64,000 nucleotides of DNA from Acidimicrobiales bacterium (GTDB lineage: Bacteria > Actinomycetota > Acidimicrobiia > Acidimicrobiales > CATQHL01), in the NCBI GenBank assembly GCA_963664235.1, contig OY760933.1, positions 1,883,419-1,947,418 of the forward strand. The letters are read 5' to 3'. Positions 7,138 to 16,988 of this stretch are shown one piece after another. Position numbers and translations under genes: made by a program. Under the pieces are notes generated by a model. That model searched no databases and was not told where the DNA came from. It was given only the letters and a program-made list of their open reading frames with translations. How positions within the stretch are numbered: position 1 is the stretch's first letter; each line of letters starts with the position of its first letter.

Positions 7138-8553
7138 TTAGGCGGCCCTTCTGGGGGCGTCGCTCGGCGGCCGCTGGTTCGGGTGGCGTTCTCGGCGAGG
7201 CTGCGCGGGGGTTCTCGTGGCGACTCCCGGGGGTCTCTGCGGTCCTCGGGGTGGCCCTGTTGATTGTCGGGTGCTGATTGCCCTGGCTTCTTTGGCGTGG
7301 TGTAGGTGGTGGTGTTTGCTGCACAGCAGTGTGAGGTTGTCGAGGTTGGTGGGGCCGCCTTTCGCCCATGGGATGATGTGGTGGATTTCGCACATCCAGT
7401 GCGGTCGGTCGCAGCCGGGGGCGGTGCAGGTGCGGTCGCGGGCGATGAGCGCTCTGCGGAGGCTGGTGCTGGCGCACCGGCGGGTGTAGCCCAGATCCAG
7501 TGTGAGGCTTGGCCGGTCGAGGGCGGCGGTGAGGATGTCGGCGTCGCAGAGCAGGCGCCGGGCCGCCGCGGGCGACAGGGGAGTGGTGTCGTCGAGTTCG
7601 CAGCGGCTGTGTTCGTGCATGCCCCGCTCGAGGGTTTCGGCGTCGATGAGGAGCATGACGTCGATGTGGGAGCCGAGCGGTTCGCCGTTGTTGTCGCCGA
7701 GTTGGCGGGATCGGCGGGCCATGTCCACCAGCGCGTCGGCGTTGCGTTGCGGGCAGGTCAGTTCGGTGGCTGGGACCCCGTCGGCGTCGGGGTGTTCGGC
7801 GCGCCAGCGGGCTTCGGCGAGGCGTCGCAGTTCGTTCTCGAACAGTGCGAACTGGTCGGCGGGCAGCAGGGCCCGGGCGCCGTGCATGCCGTCATCGCCG
7901 TCGAAGGTGGTCACGCTGCGCCGGCGGCGTTGGCGCAAATCCCGTTCGGTTCCGTCATCGCCGGCGGCGAGGTCGGCCCAGCGGCGAAGGAACCGGCGGT
8001 ACTCCTCGACGCTCATCGTCTCGGCGGCGCGGATCAGCTCCGCTTGTTCATCCCGCGCTGCTTCGGCGATGCGGCGCGCCGCGCTCGGGAAGTCCAGGTC
8101 CGCGTCGATGCTGAGATCCACGTCGGCGGGCAAGGCGATCTGTGTGAGCGCCTGTGTGTGGCCGTGGGTGATACGTCCCTCGGCGAGAGCTTCGCCGACC
8201 TCGGGCAGTTCCTCCAGCGCGAACGCGGTGCGCGCCCGGGCGAGGGCCTCGCGGCGGCTCACGCCCGCCACGCTGCGCAGCCAGCCGGCGGTGTCCACCG
8301 CGCCCGTTTCCCGGGCTACGTTGCGCTGCTCCGCCTCAGCCAGAACCTCCGCCTCGTAGGCATCCAGCCAGGCACGCGCCATCCGCACGGCCCGCAGGCA
8401 AGCACCCAGACCGTCCGCGCCGGCAACTGCCGCGGGTCGACGACACAGCACCCGCAGCACCGCCAGCAAGCGCCCGAAGGCTGGGGCCCCGGCGCCGCTG
8501 TTCCCACAAGCGGCAGCCGAGTTGCTTCGGCCTTCGGCGACTGTTCGATTCAC
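7138..8553 (-). CDS. DUF222 / HNH endonuclease (mycobacterial REP13E12-like family)
   Basis: C-terminal HNH signature CTAPGCDRPHWMCEIHHIIPWAKGGPTNLDNLTLLCSKHHHLHH follows a long DUF222-like helical N-terminal region. I chose the GTG at 8553 (VNRTVAEG...) because it lies 7 nt after a TAAGGT -10 element with an upstream TGTCACAC box. The longer ORF to 8727 would overlap fxsA and its promoter. Confidence 0.85.
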   Translation of the reverse strand: MNRTVAEGRSNSAAACGNSGAGAPAFGRLLAVLRVLCRRPAAVAGADGLGACLRAVRMARAWLDAYEAEVLAEAEQRNVARETGAVDTAGWLRSVAGVSRREALARARTAFALEELPEVGEALAEGRITHGHTQALTQIALPADVDLSIDADLDFPSAARRIAEAARDEQAELIRAAETMSVEEYRRFLRRWADLAAGDDGTERDLRQRRRRSVTTFDGDDGMHGARALLPADQFALFENELRRLAEARWRAEHPDADGVPATELTCPQRNADALVDMARRSRQLGDNNGEPLGSHIDVMLLIDAETLERGMHEHSRCELDDTTPLSPAAARRLLCDADILTAALDRPSLTLDLGYTRRCASTSLRRALIARDRTCTAPGCDRPHWMCEIHHIIPWAKGGPTNLDNLTLLCSKHHHLHHAKEARAISTRQSTGPPRGPQRPPGVATRTPAQPRRERHPNQRPPSDAPRRAA

Positions 8554-8560
8554 GAGGACA

Positions 8561-8582
8561 ACCTTACGAAAGGGGTGTGACA
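8561..8582 (-). promoter_or_regulatory. Candidate damage-type promoter TGTCACAC-N8-TAAGGT, 7 nt upstream of the HNH GTG (leaderless)
   Basis: Minus strand reads CTGTCACAC CCCTTTCG TAAGGT TGTCCTC GTG. The box and spacings are identical to the site at 13455-13476. Confidence 0.5.
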
Positions 8583-8600: not shown

Positions 8601-8622
8601 TGTCGCCACCGCTGCCTACGCT
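8601..8622 (+). promoter_or_regulatory. Candidate damage-type promoter TGTCGCCA-N8-TACGCT, 7 nt upstream of the fxsA ATG (leaderless)
   Basis: Plus strand reads TGTCGCCA CCGCTGCC TACGCT GAGGGTG ATG. It lies back to back with the HNH promoter. Confidence 0.45.
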
Positions 8623-8629
8623 GAGGGTG

Positions 8630-9172
8630 ATGTTCGTCGTCCTGCTCCTGGTGCTGCTCGGCATTCCCGTGGCGGAGATCTTCTTCATCATCCGGGTGGC
8701 TCGAGATCTGGGTATTCCCGAGACCATCGGCCTGCTGGTGGCGGTGTCGATTGCCGGGGCGTGGTTGGTGCGCCGTTCCGGCCTCGGCGTGCTGCGTCAG
8801 ATCCAGGAGCGACTCGCCCGCGGCGAGATCCCCGGCAAGGAACTCGTGGACGGCCTGCTGATCCTCGTCGGCGGCCTGCTGATGCTGACGCCGGGCTTCC
8901 TGACCGACGCCGTGGGGCTGCTGCTGCTCGTCCCTCCGACCCGGCTGGCGCTGCGGGCGCTGCTGGTCCGCCGGTACAGCAAGCGGATCCGGGTCGCCGG
9001 CTGGAACGCCGGCCCGGGCGTCTTCGGTGTCGGGGGATTCGGTCGGCGCGGCGCCGGCGGATTCGGCCCCGAGACCGGGCCGGACCGGGGCGACGTTCGC
9101 GACGTCAGAGAGCCGCGTGCGCTACGCAAGGGCCGGAAACGCAGAGAGAAACCGGGCAACAGTCAGGCCTGA
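8630..9172 (+). CDS. fxsA: FxsA family membrane protein
   Basis: MFVVLLLVLLGIPVAEIFFIIRVARDLG, GEIPGKELVDGLLILVGGLLMLTPGFLTDAVGLLLLVPPTR is the typical FxsA/UPF0716 core. Start set at ATG 8630, not TTG 8522. Confidence 0.8.
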   Translation: MFVVLLLVLLGIPVAEIFFIIRVARDLGIPETIGLLVAVSIAGAWLVRRSGLGVLRQIQERLARGEIPGKELVDGLLILVGGLLMLTPGFLTDAVGLLLLVPPTRLALRALLVRRYSKRIRVAGWNAGPGVFGVGGFGRRGAGGFGPETGPDRGDVRDVREPRALRKGRKRREKPGNSQA

Positions 9173-9214: not shown

Positions 9215-10276
9215 TCAGGCGGACAGTTCCTCCCGCACGATGGCCGCTCCGGCGGCGAGCGCTGACAACTTGGCGAATGCGACTTCGCGTGACAGGTACT
9301 TCATGCCGCAGTCGGGTGCGGGGATCAGCCGGTCCGCCGACATGTATTGCAGCGCCTCGCGGATCCGCTGCGCCACCGTCTCGGGCGTTTCCACGGTGGC
9401 GTCGCCGTTGTCGATCACGCCGAGTACCACGGTCTTGTCGGGCAGCCTCTTCAGGATGTCCAGGTCGATCCCTGGCTGCGCCGCTTCGATGGAGATCTGA
9501 TCGATTGCGCTGACGTTCAACTCCGGGAGGAAGGCGTAGGCGTCGGGCTTGCCGAGCCCCCGCCAGGCGTGGATGGCGGCGTAGCCGAAGCACATGTGCA
9601 GCACAGTCGTCCCGGTGACCCCGTCGAGTGCCTCGTCGAGCACCTCGACGGCGTACTGGGAGGCCTTGTCGGGTTTGGCCTGCATGTACGGCTCGTCGAG
9701 TTGCACCACGTCGGCCCCGGCGTCGAACAGGTCCTTGAGTTCCCGGTTGACCACCTTGGCGTAGGCGGAGGCGGCCTTGCGCTCGTCGCCGTAGTGGTCG
9801 TCCTGGGCCTGCTGGATCAGCGTGAACGGTCCCGGCAGGGTCAACTTGACGGCGCGAGTGCTGTGGGCTCGCAGCAGCTCGAGGTCGCGCACGCCGATCG
9901 GGGTGGGCCGGGTGATCGGACCGGCGATGCGCGGAACCGGATTCGGCTTGCCGGTGCGGTCCATGGCGGTGCCGTGGCGGTCGGGGTCGATGCCTCCGAG
10001 GGCGGTGGCGAAGCGGTTGGAGTAGCTCTCGCGGCGGATCTCACCGTCGGTGATGATGTCGATGCCGGCGCTCTCCATCTCGCCGATCGCCACGGTGGTG
10101 GCGTCGTCCTGGGCCTCTTGGAGGCGCTCCGGCGGGATCCGCCAGAGCTCTCTGGCTCGCACCCGTGGCGGCAGCCGGGTGCACAGCGCAGGCCGATCGA
10201 TCAGCCAGTCCGGCTGCGGATAGCTCCCCACCACGGCTGTCGGCAACAGCACGCCGCCGAGCCTAACGGACCCCAT
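9215..10276 (-). CDS. Cobalamin-independent methionine synthase family protein (MetE catalytic-domain-only type)
   Basis: VVGSYPQPDWLIDR, GIDIITDGEIRRESYSN, VVQLDEPY and IPAPDCGMKYL match the MetE C-terminal (URO-D-like) fold. Start set at ATG 10276 (MGSVRLGG...). The upstream part of the 489-aa ORF overlaps the dprA-like gene and is Arg/Ser/Pro-rich. The start may be off by about 15 nt (GTG 10291). Confidence 0.75.
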   Translation of the reverse strand: MGSVRLGGVLLPTAVVGSYPQPDWLIDRPALCTRLPPRVRARELWRIPPERLQEAQDDATTVAIGEMESAGIDIITDGEIRRESYSNRFATALGGIDPDRHGTAMDRTGKPNPVPRIAGPITRPTPIGVRDLELLRAHSTRAVKLTLPGPFTLIQQAQDDHYGDERKAASAYAKVVNRELKDLFDAGADVVQLDEPYMQAKPDKASQYAVEVLDEALDGVTGTTVLHMCFGYAAIHAWRGLGKPDAYAFLPELNVSAIDQISIEAAQPGIDLDILKRLPDKTVVLGVIDNGDATVETPETVAQRIREALQYMSADRLIPAPDCGMKYLSREVAFAKLSALAAGAAIVREELSA

Positions 10277-10367
10277 CCAGCCGTGAGCCACCCGACAACC
10301 ACCGGCGAACTGCCGGCCGCCCCCCGCCACGCTGGCGCCTATCACCGCATTCAGCGGTCGGCATTGC

Positions 10368-11339
10368 TCAGTCGAAGAGTGTGGGCTGGGGCCGGGGCGA
10401 TACTCGATCTGCCTGGAGCATCTCGACGCCGGCAGGTTCGGTGGGCTCCAGCACCGCCGCTTCGAGTTCGTCCAGCGATGTGATCGGCACCGCCCCCCGC
10501 TCCTCGAGTGGCGCGTTGCCCGGACCCTCGCCCGGGCCTCGCCACACGGCCACCCGACCGAAGCCACGTCGGAGGGCCTCCGTCGCACCGGCCCAGGTAC
10601 CACCCGTGTCGACGTCGGCGGTGACCACGAGCGTGAGATCGGACAGGGCGTAGATGAGCTTGTTGCGTCCCATGGCGCTGCCAACGCTGAAGGGCGCCTC
10701 CGGGCTGTAGGGCGTGCACATCACGGTGCGCCCGTCGTGAATAGCCCGACGGATGTCGGCACTGCGGAGCTTGCGCGCCAGCGACTCCGCCAGCACGCCC
10801 ACGACCGCTCCGCCGGCCTCGAAGGCGGCGTTCATGGCGATCTGATCGACGCCCCTGGCGCCGCCGGACACCAATGGCAGACCCAGCCGCGCCGCCACTT
10901 CGGCCGCCGCCCCAGCGACTCGGGCACCGTCGGGCGACACGTTGCGACTCCCCACCACCCCGACGCCCGGCCGGTCGAGCAACTCGACGGCACCCGCCGC
11001 GTACAGCAGCACCGGCGCAGAGGTCCCGAGCCGCTCGATGAGCCGTCCCGGATAGTCCGTGTCGAACGGAGTGAATGTCGAGATGCCCGCCTGCCCCAAC
11101 CGATCCAACTCGAACGCCATGCCGGTCGCCCGATCCAGCAGAGCCACCACCCGCGCAGCCATCTCGGCGGCCAGACCGTGTTCGCTGACAAGCTTGGTTT
11201 CGTCGACGCCCAGCAGCAGGCTCGGCCCACCGACCAGGTCGCACAGCCTCCAGAACTCCGACGCCTTGAGGGGCCGGGCCTCGTCGTTGCCGATCCGGCT
11301 CAACAGCAGGATCGTCGCCAGCGAGTCGTCGTGATTCAC
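10368..11339 (-). CDS. DprA/Smf-like (SLOG Rossmann) DNA-processing protein, partner of the RecQ-PRTase helicase
   Basis: VGVVGSRNVSPDGARVAGAAAEVAARLGLPLVSGGARGVDQIAMNAAFEAGG, FSVGSAMGRNKLIYALSDLTLVVTADVDTGGTWAGATEALRRG. The GTG start at 11339 overlaps the helicase TGA stop (GTGA, 11339-11336), indicating translational coupling. Confidence 0.85.
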   Translation of the reverse strand: MNHDDSLATILLLSRIGNDEARPLKASEFWRLCDLVGGPSLLLGVDETKLVSEHGLAAEMAARVVALLDRATGMAFELDRLGQAGISTFTPFDTDYPGRLIERLGTSAPVLLYAAGAVELLDRPGVGVVGSRNVSPDGARVAGAAAEVAARLGLPLVSGGARGVDQIAMNAAFEAGGAVVGVLAESLARKLRSADIRRAIHDGRTVMCTPYSPEAPFSVGSAMGRNKLIYALSDLTLVVTADVDTGGTWAGATEALRRGFGRVAVWRGPGEGPGNAPLEERGAVPITSLDELEAAVLEPTEPAGVEMLQADRVSPRPQPTLFD

Positions 11340-13447
11340 GTGACCGATCTGCCGGCCGTGTCGGCCAACGCGAACGGGTGCACCGGCCCGGCGCCCGCCT
11401 CGCGGAGCTTCCCGCCCACGACCGTCAGCGTCCATCTGGAGTCGACGATGTCGTCCACGAGCAGAACCGGTTCGGGGGCGACGGTCCCACGAATATCGAA
11501 CGTCTCCCGCACGTTCGCGTATTGTCGGCGGCTGTTCTGCATCATCGTCTGGGGCTCAGCATCCCGGATCTTCACGACGACATCTTCACACGGGAGCCCC
11601 AGCGCCGTTGCCAGCCGCTCGGCGAAGCCCGCAACCAACCCGGGACTGCGGAGCGAGGGCACGAAGGTCACCCAGGTCGGTGATGGGTCCGGCTTCCAGC
11701 GATTCCGGATCAGATCCCCCGCAGCGCTGACGAGTTGGCTATCGAATCGCCCGAGTTCCTGCTTGCCAGACCGCACGAGGCGGCCCCATCCGCTGTCACC
11801 CCACATCGACAGCGCATGCCCCGGCTCGAGTCGTCGGTCGGCTGCGATCCGACCCTCACCCGGCAGCAGCTTGCGGGGTTCAATGGCTCGACCGGCTCGG
11901 CGCAGGTGGTCCACCGCATTTTGAACGGTCGCCGGGTCGAACGGGATGGCGAGGCTGTCGCCGGTGCAGTTGTCGCAGACGCCGCATGGTTCCGCAGTCG
12001 CATCGTCGAGATAGAACTCGAGCAGCTGCATGCGACACCGGTCCGTGCGGACGTAGTCGAGCATCTGCCCTTGCTCGGTCCTGCGCAGGGCGGTTACCGA
12101 CTCGACCCGGGCGTGGTCGTACGTCCAGCCCCCGAGAGTCCGCAGCCAGCGGCTGCCGGCACGTTCGACTGCACCGTCGACCTCCAGGTTCTTGAGAAGC
12201 GACTCCATCTGCGTGGGCCGGACATTGAAGGATCCGAGCAGGTCGTTGGTGGACATTGGTTCTGCCCGCTCTTCGAGGAGTGCCACGACGCGTTCAGCGA
12301 GATCAGGAGGCGGGAACGCCGAGCGGATGAAGTAGTCCTGAATGTCGGCGTCCTCGGTGCCGCGCAGCAGGATCCCCCAGGACTCATCGAGCGCCCGCCC
12401 GGCACGGCCGACCTGCTGGTAGTAGGCGATCGGCGATCCCGGCGACTGGTAGTGGATCACGAAGGAGAGGTTGGGCTTGTCGAAGCCCATGCCGAGAGCA
12501 GAGGTCGCCACCACCGCCTTCACATCGTTGGACAGGAGGGCCTGCTCGGTTTCGATCCGTTCGTCGGGGTCCGTACTGCCGCTGTAGGCGACGGCGTTGA
12601 TTCCCTCCGATCGCAGCCAGCCCGCAACCCGCTCGGTGTCGGCGACGGTGAGGCAGTAGACGATGCCCGTCCCGTCCAGTTCCAGAAGGACCGCGGCGAG
12701 CCAGGTCAGGCGCTCGGCCTGCGAGGGGATGTCGAGTGCGTGCAGTCTTAGGCCGGCGCGCCGCAGCGGACCCCTCACCAGGGGAAGACCCGAGCCGAGT
12801 TGTACGGCGACATCCTCAGTAACGCGGTCGTTCGCAGTCGCCGTACAGCACAGGATGGGCACCCCGGCCGGCAGGAGCCCCAGAACGCGCGTGATGCGCC
12901 GGTAGTCGGGACGGAAGTCGTGGCCCCAGTCGGAGATGCAGTGCGCCTCGTCGATCACCAAGAGGCCGCTGCGACGACCAACCTCGGGCAGGACATCGGT
13001 GCGGAACTTCGGGTTGGCCAGCCGCTCGGGCGAGATCAGCAGCAGGTCGACTGTGTCCTCAGCCAGCCTTCCCAGTACGAGATCCCAGTCGTCGCGGTTG
13101 GTGCTGTTGATCGTCTCGGCCCGCACGCCCATCCGTTGCGCCGCCTCGATCTGGTTGCGCATCAGCGCCAGAAGCGGCGAGACCAGCAGCGTCGGCCCGC
13201 TGCCGCGGTCCCGCAGCATCCGGGTGGCGATGAAGTACACGGCGCTCTTGCCCCAGCCGGTGCGCTGCACCAGCAGCACCCGCTCACGCCGCCCCACCAG
13301 CCGCTCGATCGCCTCCAACTGATTCGGCCGGAACTCCGCACCCGGATCCCCTGTGAGCCGCCGCAGTAGCCCGAGAGCCTCTCCAGCGAGCCTCGGCTCC
13401 CGCGCCGAAGGCCCGCCCGATCCCGATCCAGCTGACCGACTTGTCAT
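11336..13447 (-). CDS. RecQ-family (RqlH-like) DNA helicase with a C-terminal ComF/phosphoribosyltransferase-like domain
   Basis: Helicase motifs: FRPNQLEAI, QRTGWGKS, LVIDEAHCISDWGHDFRPDY, CCTATAN and YYQQVGRAGRA. A RecQ Zn-finger is present (CRMQLLEFYL...EPCGVCDNC). The C-terminal roughly 140 aa have a PRTase-type core (VTFVPSLRSPGL..., EPVLLVDDIVDSRWTL) in which the usual TTG(A)T loop is replaced by DSRWT. ATG 13447 was chosen as start because it lies 7 nt after TAGGGT with an upstream TGTCACAC box. Confidence 0.9.
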   Translation of the reverse strand: MTSRSAGSGSGGPSAREPRLAGEALGLLRRLTGDPGAEFRPNQLEAIERLVGRRERVLLVQRTGWGKSAVYFIATRMLRDRGSGPTLLVSPLLALMRNQIEAAQRMGVRAETINSTNRDDWDLVLGRLAEDTVDLLLISPERLANPKFRTDVLPEVGRRSGLLVIDEAHCISDWGHDFRPDYRRITRVLGLLPAGVPILCCTATANDRVTEDVAVQLGSGLPLVRGPLRRAGLRLHALDIPSQAERLTWLAAVLLELDGTGIVYCLTVADTERVAGWLRSEGINAVAYSGSTDPDERIETEQALLSNDVKAVVATSALGMGFDKPNLSFVIHYQSPGSPIAYYQQVGRAGRALDESWGILLRGTEDADIQDYFIRSAFPPPDLAERVVALLEERAEPMSTNDLLGSFNVRPTQMESLLKNLEVDGAVERAGSRWLRTLGGWTYDHARVESVTALRRTEQGQMLDYVRTDRCRMQLLEFYLDDATAEPCGVCDNCTGDSLAIPFDPATVQNAVDHLRRAGRAIEPRKLLPGEGRIAADRRLEPGHALSMWGDSGWGRLVRSGKQELGRFDSQLVSAAGDLIRNRWKPDPSPTWVTFVPSLRSPGLVAGFAERLATALGLPCEDVVVKIRDAEPQTMMQNSRRQYANVRETFDIRGTVAPEPVLLVDDIVDSRWTLTVVGGKLREAGAGPVHPFALADTAGRSVT

Positions 13448-13454
13448 GATGCGA

Positions 13455-13476
13455 ACCCTACGAGGGGGGTGTGACA
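13455..13476 (-). promoter_or_regulatory. Candidate damage-type promoter TGTCACAC-N8-TAGGGT, 7 nt upstream of the helicase ATG (leaderless)
   Basis: Minus strand reads CTGTCACAC CCCCCTCG TAGGGT TCGCATC ATG. Confidence 0.5.
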
Positions 13477-13611
13477 GCGAGCCTCGCGGGATCCGTCCTG
13501 GGCGCGGGCGTGGTGGGTCCGCCGCGCTCGCCGCGGGCGTGCGGTTGCCGATCGGTCCTCGGGCGAGCGCGCCGTGCGCGACCGGTGAGCGCATCCGACA
13601 GGTGCGGCCGG

Positions 13612-14154
13612 TCAGACGAGTGCCCGGATGGCTCCCACCGACCGGTAGTTGCGGGCCGTCATCTCGGTCCCGATGAGCCGGTGCAATCGCTCGACCAGTT
13701 TGGACCGGCCGAACCCACCGGGGGTGTGGAGGTAGAAGACCCTCTCGGTCAGCACGAACTCCTCGCCTTGCGTGGCCAATGCCCGCAGGCCGTCCAGGTC
13801 GGCGGTCGGATCGGGCTCGGCGAGGAAGAAGAAGTGGACCGCCCTCGGATCCTGGTCGCTCCGGGAGAACGGGTTCTCAGCGATGGCGGTGTCGAAGGCA
13901 TCGACGTCGAGGACGAACGTGTGAGGAGCGAACCCGAAGCGCCCCTCGATGGCACCCTGAACCGAGCGGGCCACCGAGTCACGGTCGCCGTCCGACGAGT
14001 CCAGAACGATGTTGCCGCTCTGGATGTACGTGCGAACGTTCTCAAAGCCGACCTCGGTGAGCAGCTCGCGGAGCGCAACCATCGGCAGCTTGCGACGCCC
14101 ACCGACGTTCACGCCCCGCAGGAGCACGATCCAAGTCGTCATCACCGCCAGCAT
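13612..14154 (-). CDS. DUF1697 domain protein
   Basis: [44 protein letters not shown] is the characteristic DUF1697 N-terminus. The start could instead be ATG 14142. Confidence 0.8.
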
Positions 14155-14262: not shown

Positions 14263-14284
14263 TGTCGTATGCCACGTCTATCGT
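14263..14284 (+). promoter_or_regulatory. Candidate damage-type promoter TGTCGTAT-N8-TATCGT, 7 nt upstream of the macro-domain gene ATG (leaderless)
   Basis: Plus strand reads TGTCGTAT GCCACGTC TATCGT CGGCAAC ATG. Confidence 0.45.
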
Positions 14285-14291
14285 CGGCAAC

Positions 14292-15254
14292 ATGGCTGAA
14301 GCTCGACGAGCCGCAGGTCGGGACGACTGGGAGACACACCCGCTAACGCTGCCGGAGGCGATTCCGCCGCCCGCCCGGACCTGGACGGAAGCGGAGATGG
14401 CCCAGATCCGGCTCGGCTACATCCCCAGCATCATGGATGAGAAGTGGTTCATCTTCATGGAGGGGGACCGCTTGTTCGCTCATCGCAGTTGGACAGGTCT
14501 GGGTGTCTACGAGGCGACCTTCACGCCGACCGACGGCGGGTACATCGTCAGCTCAGCGTCCGTTACCGGTGACCGGGCCCAGTACAAGCGCTCCTCGGAT
14601 CAGGACGAGTCCCAGATCCTCGAAGCGCTCATCGCCGGCCACCTGCTCAGCCAATCGCTCACCGAGTCGCAGTTGACAGACAAGAGCCCACATCTTCGCT
14701 GGGAACTGTCGGTCCCCAACATCCCGAAGGAGGCGTTCATTCTGCCTGTCGTCGAGACGGAGGGCCCCGAGTTGAGTCTCGTCGTGGGCGACATCACCGA
14801 ACTGCCCATCGATGCCATCGTGAACGCGGCCAATTCCACGCTCCTCGGCGGCGGGGGCGTCGACGGGGCCATCCATCGAGCTGCCGGACCCGAACTCCTC
14901 CAGCACTGCCGCACGCTGGGCGGTTGCGAGACCGGGCAGGCCAAGATCACGCCGGGCTTCGATCTGGCGGCCCGGTGGGTGATCCACACCGTCGGGCCGG
15001 TCTGGGGCGGCGGCAACCAAGGTGAGCCCGAGCTGCTGGCCTCCTGCTACCGGGAGTCGTTGGCCCGGGCCGACGAGGTCGGGGCCGAGACCGTTGCGTT
15101 CCCGGCGATCTCAACGGGGGTCTACGGCTACCCGATCGAAGCGGCAGCAGCCGTCGCCGTCGAGACTGTTCGCTCCACGCCCACCGACGTCACCGAGGTC
15201 AGCTTCGTCGCCTTCAACCAGGAGACCTACGACGCCTACGCTGCACTCCTCTGA
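14292..15254 (+). CDS. Macro domain (ADP-ribose binding/hydrolase, YmdB-like) protein with an unrecognised N-terminal domain of about 150 aa
   Basis: The C-terminal half has [43 protein letters not shown] and [14 protein letters not shown] do not recognise the N-terminal half ([34 protein letters not shown]). Confidence 0.85.
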
Positions 15255-15966: not shown

Positions 15967-16227
15967 TCAGCGCAGCCGGTACGCGTCACGGCGATGCTGG
16001 ACCCGGTGCACGACGACGATCTGGTCGTCGTCGACCTCGAAGATGATCCGGTAGTCGCCGCGGCGAGCGACTCGAAGGCCCTCGAGTGGGCCGACAAGTG
16101 GCTTGCCGAGCCTTCGGGGGTTCTCTACCAGGGGACCGGAGATGGTTGCGACGGCGGCGGGACGCACTTTCTCGGGAAGCCGCTCAAGAGAACGGGCACC
16201 CTCGGGAGTGATCCTGAGGTCGTACAC
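15967..16227 (-). CDS. RelE/ParE family type II toxin
   Basis: LRVARRGDYRIIFEVDDDQIVVVHRVQHRRDAY is the classic RelE/ParE C-terminal core. GTG start at 16227. Confidence 0.85.
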   Translation of the reverse strand: MYDLRITPEGARSLERLPEKVRPAAVATISGPLVENPRRLGKPLVGPLEGLRVARRGDYRIIFEVDDDQIVVVHRVQHRRDAYRLR

Positions 16228-16371: not shown

Positions 16372-16608
16372 ATGCGCACTACTGTGTCGATCGACGATGA
16401 GGTCTACGAGCAGGCCCGGCGGATTGCATTCGAATCGCGCCGGACGCTCGGCGACGTCATCAATGAACTGCTCGCCGAGGGACTCAAGCTCGTCGCCCCA
16501 CCGCCGGCGCGTCGCTCCCTCGGGCAGCTGCGAGGCACCATCAGCATCGCCGACGACTTCGACGAGTTGCCCCGCGAAGTGCTGGACTCGCTCGACAGCC
16601 CACTCTGA
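16372..16608 (+). CDS. vapB: VapB-type antitoxin
   Basis: MRTTVSIDDEVYEQARRIAFESRRTLGDVINELL. The stop overlaps the vapC ATG (TGATG). The ATG is 6 nt after TATGAT (16360-16365), consistent with a leaderless transcript. Confidence 0.8.
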   Translation: MRTTVSIDDEVYEQARRIAFESRRTLGDVINELLAEGLKLVAPPPARRSLGQLRGTISIADDFDELPREVLDSLDSPL

Positions 16609-16988
16609 TGGCGCGACTGCTGCTCGACACCCACGTTCTGCTCTGGGCCAACGAGGCGCCGGAGAGACTCTCCGCCGAAGCGGTCGCCGCGCTGGAGGAC
16701 CCGGCCAATGACCTGTTGGTGTCATCGGTCTCAGTCGCCGAGATCGAGATCAAACGACGGTTGGGTAAGCTGGCCATGGAGCACAGCTGCGAAACGCTCA
16801 GATCACAGCTCGGTGGGGTCTGGCTCGACCTGACCGCTGCGCATACCATGGGGTTGCGCGCGCTCCCCGATCTTCATGCCGATCCGTTCGACCGGCTCCT
16901 CATCGCGCAGGCACTGACCGAGGGGTGCACACTCGTCACCGCCGACAAAACGGTGCTCGCCTACCCCCTGCTGACGCTCACCGCGTAA
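16608..16988 (+). CDS. vapC: VapC PIN-domain toxin
   Basis: LLLDTHVLLW, VSSVSVAEIEIK and DPFDRLLIAQALTEGCTLVTAD supply the PIN acidic residues. Confidence 0.9.
   Translation: MARLLLDTHVLLWANEAPERLSAEAVAALEDPANDLLVSSVSVAEIEIKRRLGKLAMEHSCETLRSQLGGVWLDLTAAHTMGLRALPDLHADPFDRLLIAQALTEGCTLVTADKTVLAYPLLTLTA

Follow-up and report, generated by a model that had tools for sequence, protein, structure and literature searches.

An RqlHI (PsyrTA) gene pair with a putative PafBC-type leaderless promoter on an Acidimicrobiia-type actinobacterial chromosome

Introduction

RqlH of the extraintestinal pathogenic Escherichia coli strain F11 combines, in this order, a RecQ-like ATPase, a linker, a four-cysteine zinc module and a PRTase domain (PMC4670107). 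Russell & Mulvey (2015) traced the genotoxicity of the protein to its PRTase domain, the toxicity requiring the DD acidic pair, and reported that the DprA-like RqlI binds and restrains RqlH (PMC4670107). E. coli RqlI reportedly has a C-terminal HTH, which is dispensable (PMC4670107). RqlH-RqlI and the PsyrTA of Pseudomonas syringae are one system (Sberro 2013; Millman 2022), and PsyrTA cloned in E. coli conferred phage resistance (Millman et al. 2022 preprint). In Mycobacterium smegmatis, the ComF/PRTase C-domain of RqlH (MSMEG_5935) was described by Ordonez, Unciuleac & Shuman in 2012 (PMC3378886). A P1/RecA-NDp (RecA-independent promoter) motif is listed for this gene (PMC5656591), and the level of the protein drops 1.9-fold in a pafBC deletion mutant. 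In a 2015 survey, nearly all Gram-positive RqlH proteins were without RqlI (PMC4670107).

Two other groups of proteins are relevant for comparison. ShosTA pairs a PRTase-pyrophosphatase toxin, whose toxicity is tied to PRPP binding and DNA damage, with a DprA-like antitoxin (PMC11961720, PMC12961424); PsyrA and ShosA are both DprA-like, and both toxins have PRTase domains (Millman et al. 2022 preprint). The ComFA/ComFC/DprA trio of competence likewise brings together helicase, PRTase-like and DprA-like proteins, a parallel with RqlH(I) that has been remarked (PMC3378886, PMC4670107).

Here, we analysed a gene pair from an actinobacterial chromosome within a 64-kb window, meaning the whole stretch of DNA (64,000 nucleotides) under analysis. 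The locus is an ordinary instance of RqlHI (PsyrTA), a known two-gene toxin–antitoxin/anti-phage module. Its architecture, its toxin–antitoxin behaviour, its anti-phage role and the presence of a damage-type promoter on an actinobacterial rqlH are already published.

Results

The helicase gene

Both genes of the pair lie on the minus strand. The first gene and its parts are as follows:

11336..13447 (stop codon included), minus strand: rqlH / psyrT, a 703-aa RecQ-like helicase with a C-terminal PRTase-like domain (PADLOC PsyrT, TIGR00614, E. coli identity)
12392..13330, minus strand: superfamily-2 helicase core, DEAD aa 40-211 and Helicase_C aa 255-352 (Pfam, PDB RecQ cores)
11963..12076, minus strand: RecQ-type four-cysteine zinc-binding module, aa 458-495 (Pfam RecQ_Zn_bind)
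11354..11887, minus strand: ComF/PRTase-fold domain, ~aa 521-698 (AlphaFold2 and Foldseek; sub-threshold in Pfam)
11429-11467, minus strand: PRPP-loop motif VLLVDDIVDSRWT, aa 661-673 (motif conservation across homologues)

Read from its first ATG, the open reading frame spans 11336..13594 on the minus strand and encodes 752 aa. We favor the ATG at 13447, from which the 703-aa version begins, because homologues are 703 or 690 aa long and the alignment to the PsyrT model begins at residue 23. The translation contains TGWGKS, DEAHCISDWGHDFRPDY, GRAGRA, C-x16-C-x2-C-x2-C and the PRPP-loop motif listed above. Pfam recognized DEAD (3.6e-22), Helicase_C (1.6e-17) and RecQ_Zn_bind (8.7e-6, 26.8 bits vs a cut-off of 25), and aa 37-352 align with RecQ cores from the PDB at ~1e-54. 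These motifs and domains bear out the complete RecQ core and tetracysteine module that the initial annotation had read in a 703-aa protein. A linker of ~100 aa separates the ATPase core from the zinc module, as in M. smegmatis RqlH (layout described in PMC3378886); the Pfam search of the helicase found no HRDC domain.

The strongest assignment came from the PADLOC model PDLC03928 (PsyrT), with 2.9e-263 and 873.3 bits over residues 23-699 of the protein and positions 7-686 of 689 of the model, PRTase region included. An E. coli RqlH-type protein is 48% identical to the helicase end to end. Several PADLOC DpdF models also match (best 2.8e-89), as would be expected of a DpdF-type helicase from a dpd (7-deazaguanine DNA modification/restriction) cluster; given that the PsyrT match is far stronger, that the NCBIfam DpdF equivalog scored 127.7 against a cut-off of 550 and that no other dpd genes lie nearby in the window, such an origin has practically no probability. 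The protein passes the general RecQ family model TIGR00614 (recQ_fam, 225.2 bits vs a cut-off of 219.8) and misses the recQ equivalogs TIGR01389 (280.3 bits vs 640.2) and NF008279 (207.8 vs 1015). The same helicase-PRTase architecture was present in all 80 homologous loci retrieved, from many phyla, and 1686 of the 5426 E. coli genomes counted contain rqlH-like DNA.

The C-terminal domain was first proposed as PRTase-like with a degenerate PRPP loop, DSRWT. Pfam Pribosyltran stayed below its cut-off (20 bits vs 26.3), and the PRTase fold emerged from structure prediction: with the AlphaFold2 model of aa 505-703 (pLDDT 83, pTM 0.84), the best 50 Foldseek matches in the PDB all had the PRTase fold, including PurF, ShosT (8zvd, TMq 0.55) and ComF of Helicobacter pylori (7p0h, TMq 0.54). 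The PRTase-type fold thus stands; the loop cannot be called degenerate, since it is conserved across the RqlH family. Indeed, D-S-(R/G)-W-T is a family signature, with S in 78, W in 78 and T in 75 of 78 homologues, the variable position being R in 39 and G in 34. The loop DDIVDS(G/R)WT is common to the window protein, which has R, and to E. coli RqlH, which has G. The acidic pair D665-D666 is present, E. coli D663 corresponding to D666.

As a separate observation, RqlH homologues without a partner mostly miss the aspartate that opens the D-S-(R/G)-W-T loop. This loss could guide the choice of mutants for finding the PRTase activity of RqlH.

The partner gene and its linkage to the helicase

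The second gene and its junction with rqlH comprise:

10368..11339, minus strand: rqlI / psyrA, a 323-aa DprA-like (SLOG/Rossmann) partner (PADLOC PsyrA, Pfam DNA_processg_A)
10566-11093, minus strand: DNA_processg_A domain, aa 83-258 of the partner (Pfam, 7.3e-34)
11336-11339, minus strand: GTGA, the rqlI GTG start overlapping the rqlH TGA stop (sequence reading)

The partner matched PADLOC PsyrA at 1.8e-82 (275.6 bits), with the alignment starting at residue 4 when the protein is read from its GTG. Because it covers model positions 5-297 of 398 only, the C-terminal PsyrA region is judged absent; the ~100 C-terminal aa of longer PsyrA family members are missing, and so is the region reported as HTH in E. 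coli RqlI. The initial annotation had described PsyrA as a small nucleotide-binding partner, which is not correct, PsyrA being DprA-like (Millman et al. 2022 preprint). The domain calls made at the outset (RecQ-like core, zinc module, PRTase-like C-domain, DprA-like partner) agree with Pfam, PADLOC and AlphaFold2/Foldseek, and the proposed kinship to PsyrTA/RqlHI and the RqlH clade is confirmed by the PsyrT and PsyrA scores.

The locus had moreover been presented as a hybrid of PsyrTA and ShosTA, with no functional work known on the arrangement; a PsyrT-type helicase would thereby have acquired a PRTase of the ShosT type and a DprA partner of the ShosA type. ShosA models do match the partner (95 bits, 1.2e-27), the ShosTA antitoxin chains 8zva and 9vzo resemble it in sequence at ~2e-8, and ShosT structures are among the Foldseek matches of the C-domain. 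Nevertheless, the partner reaches 276 bits on PsyrA against 95 on ShosA, and the PRTase region is itself part of the PsyrT model; the canonical architecture of RqlHI/PsyrTA is a helicase-PRTase fusion beside a DprA-like gene. ShosT shares the PRTase fold, yet its identity to the C-domain is only 12-14%, and it carries a hydrolase/pyrophosphatase domain at its N-terminus and lacks a helicase, whereas the large protein of the window is a helicase; no ShosT model appeared among the best 25 PADLOC matches of the latter. The fused arrangement had already been described for M. smegmatis (PMC3378886) and for E. coli RqlH/RqlI (PMC4670107), and it recurs in every homologous locus retrieved; rqlH-like DNA is present in the E. 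coli genomes counted above. Taken with the Millman preprint, these data refute the hybrid, to which we give hardly any credence.

It might also be supposed that a housekeeping RecQ helicase stands by chance beside the canonical dprA of the genome, the competence/recombination mediator. RefSeq names the E. coli homologues "RecQ family ATP-dependent DNA helicase" and "DNA-processing protein DprA", and the rest of the region around the locus is housekeeping chromosome. However, the dprA equivalogs were missed (TIGR00732, 84.2 bits vs a cut-off of 191.15; NF008007, 66.4 vs 495), as were those of recQ, and no HRDC domain was found. A survey of gene neighbourhoods across 75 homologous loci placed the partner directly downstream of the helicase gene in 56, and the projected gap between the two was 0-84 nt in 55. 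A housekeeping pair with an incidental adjacency is thus very unlikely.

The GTGA overlap, which had been taken to suggest production of the two proteins in fixed stoichiometry, is present as read. Two E. coli rqlHI loci also have a 4-nt stop/start overlap (ATGA), with the DprA-like partner directly downstream as in the window, but the 4-nt overlap is not kept in the closest relatives (L081 and L082), in which 66 nt separate rqlH from rqlI. The gene order rqlH-rqlI-MetE-like-FxsA-PhyH-RDD is preserved in relatives with an 88-89% identical helicase. In relatives, the upstream side of rqlH varies in content and holds ParDE, PIN, HNH and transposase genes, and the genes neighbouring rqlHI in the window gave no PADLOC match. 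Near the pair, the window holds no other competence genes; the helicase is RecQ-like and not ComFA-like, and two genes bring the functions together, by fusion or by pairing.

The promoter region

Upstream of rqlH lies a further feature:

13455..13476, minus strand: candidate PafBC/RecA-NDp-type promoter motif TGTCAC-N10-TAGGGT (consensus fit, geometry, recurrence at rqlH starts)

The string TGTCACACCCCCCTCGTAGGGT runs from 13476 to 13455 and is followed by 7 nt and then by the ATG at 13447, a leaderless geometry. It is composed of a -26 element TGTCAC (13476-13471), a 10-nt spacer and a -10 hexamer TAGGGT (13460-13455), with no -35 element; a search of 10000-13700 gave no sigma-70 -35/-10 promoter. 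The PafBC promoter consensus is tGTCgg(N10)tA(N3)T (PMC8635444; also Table S1 of PMC5656591). The motif has the PafBC/RecA-NDp (P1) features, that is GTC at about -26, 12 nt before TANNNT, and no -35; after GTC it reads AC, where the consensus has a weakly conserved GG.

The window contains 4 occurrences of the pattern versus 0.81 expected; when a start codon and an ORF of >=100 aa are also required, there are 4 versus 0.13 in shuffles. These four copies, which mark three neighbouring genes besides rqlH, share an identical 7-nt geometry and are clustered within 6 kb. Across 36 high-GC homologous loci, the full pattern was found in only 8 copies in 0.69 Mb, 6 of them exactly at an in-frame rqlH start. 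At rqlH, the motif was seen in loci L001, L002, L005, L007, L033, L037, L054, L081 and L082 (as variants in L001, L033 and L037), and it was missing in the actinobacterial homologues L003, L004, L006, L009 and L016. The consensus fit and the recurrence at actinobacterial rqlH starts argue for the damage-type leaderless promoter that had been predicted.

Alternatively, PsyrTA might be a purely constitutive abortive-infection system, TGTC...TAGGGT being an ordinary -10 promoter whose likeness to PafBC sites is fortuitous. The phage resistance conferred by cloned PsyrTA in E. coli and the variable region upstream of rqlH in relatives would fit such a system. In a transcriptome survey of E. coli, defence-system expression generally correlated negatively with recA, so damage induction does not hold for PsyrTA in general; nor is SOS induction the rule among E. 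coli defence systems. Against constitutive expression stand the rarity of the full motif and its concentration at rqlH starts, the uniform geometry of the four clustered copies, the adjoining genes without PADLOC matches, and the rqlH of M. smegmatis, which carries the motif and is PafBC-dependent at protein level. We consider the constitutive explanation unlikely.

Discussion

As a whole, the data are very probably best explained by a canonical RqlHI (= PsyrTA) two-gene module on an Acidimicrobiia-type actinobacterial chromosome, acting through the mechanism proposed below. It is no new hybrid, because the RqlHI architecture is known and a damage-type promoter has already been reported for M. 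smegmatis rqlH. The M. smegmatis protein has the same four-part architecture, judged from its published description (PMC3378886), and its gene has a RecA-NDp/P1 motif like that of the window. The papers cited here on M. smegmatis RqlH mention no RqlI partner, whereas the window has the pair. Compared with E. coli RqlHI, the locus differs by its promoter, which appears to be of the actinobacterial PafBC type and leaderless, and by its host, a high-GC Acidimicrobiia-type bacterium, the 2015 survey having found almost no RqlI in Gram-positives (PMC4670107).

Motif, geometry and conservation suggest that a PafBC-type WYL-domain activator would sense ssDNA arising from damage or infection and recruit the housekeeping RNA polymerase to the -26 GTC and the -10 TAGGGT, giving a leaderless rqlH-rqlI mRNA; no WYL or pafBC gene lies within the 64-kb window. 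As read from the sequence, one message with overlapping stop and start codons would yield both proteins. The N-terminal ~505 aa would act as a 3'-5' ssDNA translocase and helicase, an activity shown for M. smegmatis RqlH. By analogy with the E. coli pair, the PRTase domain at the C-terminus would be genotoxic when unrestrained, in dependence on its DD acidic pair, and the DprA-like partner would bind RqlH and suppress this toxicity. PRPP, as in ShosT, or a related ligand with a phosphoribosyl group may bind to the conserved DD...DS(R/G)WT loop. RqlH freed from RqlI, plausibly when abundant ssDNA engages RqlI, might then cause DNA damage and growth arrest, which could serve an abortive-infection-like defence or damage processing.

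A wider reading can be offered only tentatively, and we think it rather doubtful: in Actinomycetota, RqlHI/PsyrTA might be wired into the ssDNA-sensing PafBC regulon and co-induced with the neighbouring leaderless DUF222-HNH nuclease, FxsA and macro-domain genes, as a DNA-processing module triggered by damage or infection, and in lineages that lost RqlI the disappearance of the PRPP-loop aspartate from the PRTase domain might have been a compensation. If this is true, the loss of the aspartate after that of RqlI would trace a path from a toxin to a domesticated repair helicase.

To conclude, the locus adds a clean example of paired RqlH and RqlI in a Gram-positive (Acidimicrobiia-type) lineage. 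Moreover, the putative PafBC-type leaderless promoter, kept across several Actinomycetota, would tie a catalogued defence system to a DNA-damage regulon.

Results

Family identity of the locus

The initial annotation observed a real feature correctly but read too much novelty into it: the locus belongs to the known RqlHI/PsyrTA kind, and its damage promoter is of a known type. Re-reading confirmed the 703-aa helicase, its motifs, the GTGA overlap and the promoter string, with both genes on the minus strand. The RqlH translation carries the helicase motifs TGWGKS, DEAHCISDWGHDFRPDY and QQVGRAGRA, a C-x16-C-x2-C-x2-C module and, at aa 661-673, VLLVDDIVDSRWT.

Profile searches bore out the domain assignments of both proteins. 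RqlH matched Pfam DEAD, Helicase_C and RecQ_Zn_bind (26.8 bits against a cut-off of 25) as well as PADLOC PsyrT (2.9e-263, 873 bits, model positions 7-686 of 689), and the 323-aa DprA-like protein opened by the rqlI GTG matched DNA_processg_A (7.3e-34) and PADLOC PsyrA (1.8e-82, 276 bits, versus 95 bits for ShosA). The PADLOC profiles settle the identity of the locus as the canonical RqlHI/PsyrTA architecture. It had been proposed to be a hybrid of PsyrTA and ShosTA; this reading fails, since the extent of the PsyrT match means that the model itself takes in the PRTase-like C-terminus, the partner scores higher with PsyrA than with ShosA, and the arrangement is published. Canonical RecQ (recQ equivalog, 280 against a cut-off of 640), canonical DprA (dprA equivalog, 84 against 191) and membership of RqlH in DpdF (128 against 550) were rejected.

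At least 8000 RqlH homologues were found. End-to-end identity between the window RqlH and an E. coli homologue is 48%. Of 5426 complete E. coli genomes, 1686 contain RqlH-like DNA; RefSeq labels the genes "RecQ family ATP-dependent DNA helicase" and "DNA-processing protein DprA". Identity reaches 70-73% with Acidimicrobiales metagenome-assembled genomes and up to 93% with metagenome proteins; an exact-sequence look-up returned no record of the window helicase in public assemblies.

The arrangement is exactly that of RqlH from E. coli F11 and M. smegmatis, and the view that it lacked functional work is contradicted by studies of both (PMC3378886, PMC4670107). M. smegmatis RqlH (MSMEG_5935, 691 aa) comprises a RecQ-like ATPase, a ~90-aa linker, a four-cysteine zinc domain and a ComF/PRTase-like C-domain, and its aa 1-505 are enough for 3'-5' translocase and helicase activity (PMC3378886). 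In E. coli F11, RqlH is genotoxic via its PRTase domain, this toxicity being lost in D663A, and RqlI, the product of the downstream gene with homology to DprA, binds and restrains RqlH; the parallel with ComFA/ComFC/DprA was already discussed for this pair (PMC4670107). The preprint of Millman et al. treats PsyrTA and RqlHI as the same system and reports phage defence; it describes PsyrA and ShosA as both DprA-like and PRTase domains in both toxins.

Start codons

11336..13594, minus strand: longest open reading frame of rqlH, 752 aa counted from the first ATG

The ATG at 13594 would give RqlH 49 extra Pro/Arg-rich residues (13448-13594, minus strand), and the longest-frame start of RqlI, ATG 11435, would add 32 residues. 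For both predicted proteins, the shorter start is favoured by the lengths of homologues and by the profile alignments. Many close RqlH homologues have exactly 703 or 690 aa, and the PsyrT alignment begins at residue 23; together with the promoter geometry at this codon, this supports ATG 13447 (minus strand) as the start of the 703-aa protein.

The PRTase-like C-domain

The Pribosyltran match of RqlH was sub-threshold (20 bits against a cut-off of 26.3, aa 608-693), and a sequence-only PDB search matched RecQ cores and nothing for the C-domain, which was therefore tested by structure prediction. AlphaFold2 modelled aa 505-703 with 39 homologues at pLDDT 83 and pTM 0.84, and the best 50 Foldseek matches of this model in the PDB were all PRTase-fold proteins, including PurF, ShosT (8zvd, TMq 0.55), H. 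pylori ComF (7p0h, TMq 0.54), APRT, HGPRT, OPRT and PyrR. Thus, the PRTase-type domain initially recognised is backed by its predicted fold, though sub-threshold in Pfam.

The PRPP loop, DSRWT in the window protein, had been called degenerate. It is instead a family signature, the motif across 78 homologous loci of many phyla being DD-(M/I)-V-D-S-(R/G)-W-T:

Loop S: 78/78 homologous loci
Loop W: 78/78 homologous loci
Loop T: 75/78 homologous loci
Loop R or G: 39 R and 34 G among 78 homologous loci

Each residue of this motif has its counterpart in the 6-oxopurine PRTase motif E-D-I-I-D-T-G-K-T. In a translated E. coli homologue, DIVD spans residues 663-666, so that D663, the second Asp of VDD, corresponds to D666 of the window protein, in which this toxicity-critical residue is present.

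The rqlI partner and its linkage

11336-11339, minus strand: GTGA, overlap of the rqlH TGA and the rqlI GTG

Of 75 homologous loci in which this could be determined, 56 have a DprA-like partner directly downstream of rqlH, which refutes an incidental rqlH-dprA adjacency. The proposed translational coupling stands in part: a 4-nt overlap is seen as GTGA in the window and as ATGA in two E. coli loci, but in the closest relatives (L081 and L082) the genes are separated by 66 nt. RqlI aligns with the 398-position PsyrA model over 5-297 and hence is without the C-terminal part, where an HTH was reported in E. coli RqlI and found dispensable in that species (PMC4670107).

Among the 75 loci, the Asp preceding the loop Ser is present in 55/56 paired and 7/19 unpaired RqlH. 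The other 12 unpaired proteins, mostly from Solirubrobacterales-type genomes (L005, L020, L025, L031, L042, L043, L054, L058, L059, L061, L064 and L068), have F, M, L, I, G, H or N there and still keep the DD pair. The association of Asp absence with the unpaired state (12/19 versus 1/56, Fisher p = 2e-8) is uncorrected for phylogeny and may therefore reflect few evolutionary events. Russell & Mulvey reported that paired and unpaired RqlH do not differ in any major way in sequence (PMC4670107).

The predicted damage-type promoter

13476->13455, minus strand: rqlH promoter string TGTCACACCCCCCTCGTAGGGT, separated from the downstream ATG by 7 nt
8553-8582, minus strand: PafBC-type motif of the DUF222-HNH endonuclease gene (GTG at 8553)
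8601-8632, plus strand: PafBC-type motif of fxsA (ATG at 8630)
14263-14294, plus strand: PafBC-type motif of the 320-aa macro-domain gene (ATG at 14292)

The activator PafBC acts by "sigma adaptation" on the consensus tGTCgg(N10)tA(N3)T, in which GTC is strictly conserved and which is without a -35 (PMC8635444); an alternative form is tTGTCRgtg-8nt-TAnnnT (PMC5656591 Table S1). The rqlH string, TGTCAC-N10-TAGGGT, fits this consensus. TGTC-N12-TANNNT occurs four times in the window against 0.81 expected, and all four motifs end exactly 7 nt before the in-frame start codon of a real gene (rqlH, the DUF222-HNH gene, fxsA and the macro-domain gene); with start codon and ORF required, shuffles gave 0.13 (maximum 2 in 200). 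Four leaderless damage-type promoters thus lie within 6 kb.

The motif recurs at rqlH elsewhere. In 36 high-GC homologous loci (0.69 Mb, both strands), six of eight full patterns lie exactly at the in-frame rqlH start; the motif is also seen in L001 and L033, at a spacing of 9 nt, and in L037, where it precedes the start by 67 nt. In L081 and L082, whose helicases are 88-89% identical to that of the window, GTC, spacing and -10 hexamer are kept while the spacer sequence has diverged. M. smegmatis rqlH is listed with a PafBC-type motif (PMC5656591 Table S1), and its protein level is 1.9-fold lower in a pafBC deletion mutant; the main text of the SOS-versus-PafBC paper (PMC8682763) does not mention rqlH/MSMEG_5935. 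A scan of window positions 10000-13700 found no sigma-70 promoter or intrinsic terminator. Consensus fit, enrichment, recurrence and the mycobacterial precedent uphold the leaderless damage-type promoter initially proposed, and this predicted assignment is well supported, yet not new.

In the same two relatives, the gene just upstream of rqlH, encoding phage Gp37/Gp68-like DUF5131, has TGTC-N12-TACGAT-N7-GTG (L081 6109-6140, L082 7142-7173, plus strand), which suggests that it may share the rqlH regulon and that its called starts are probably too far downstream.

Genomic neighbourhood

The window represents ordinary chromosome, with genes such as those for GDP-mannose dehydratase, SUF, ABC transporters and PDH E1. 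The order rqlH-rqlI-MetE-like-FxsA-PhyH-RDD is conserved in L081 and L082, whose side upstream of rqlH is variable (DUF5131, ParDE, HNH, macro-domain and transposase genes). A PADLOC scan of seven neighbouring proteins gave no defence-system match, so that nothing evident places the locus in a recognised defence island.

The DUF222-HNH gene (7138-8553, minus strand), whose promoter motif TGTCACACCCCTTTCGTAAGGT is nearly identical to that of rqlH, lies between PhyH and FxsA; since these adjoin in L081/L082, it looks like an insertion with its own promoter. A ParE-family toxin (15967-16227, minus strand) and a PIN-domain VapC-like protein (16608-16988, plus strand) are encoded a few kb upstream of rqlH, and relatives carry PhdYeFM-ParE pairs in the equivalent variable region. 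In E. coli strain 1283 (L083, NZ_CP023371.1 4313049-4320154), rqlH-rqlI is flanked on its two sides by the S-subunit and R-subunit genes of the type I restriction-modification operon that contains it.

Discussion

Family membership, fold, operon structure and the promoter motif with its conservation come from the present analysis; 3'-5' helicase activity, PRTase-dependent genotoxicity, RqlI binding and neutralisation, and phage defence were demonstrated by others in homologues. Single-stranded DNA might trigger a PafBC-type induction yielding a leaderless bicistronic rqlH-rqlI mRNA. The conserved RqlH loop may, by analogy with ShosT, bind a PRPP-type ligand, and engagement of RqlI by single-stranded DNA would release RqlH.

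To conclude, what appeared to be a hybrid is the canonical architecture of the family, and the promoter type was already known on rqlH. Conservation of the damage promoter, together with the chromosomal synteny, tends to favour, for this lineage, a role in DNA processing that is induced by damage or infection.
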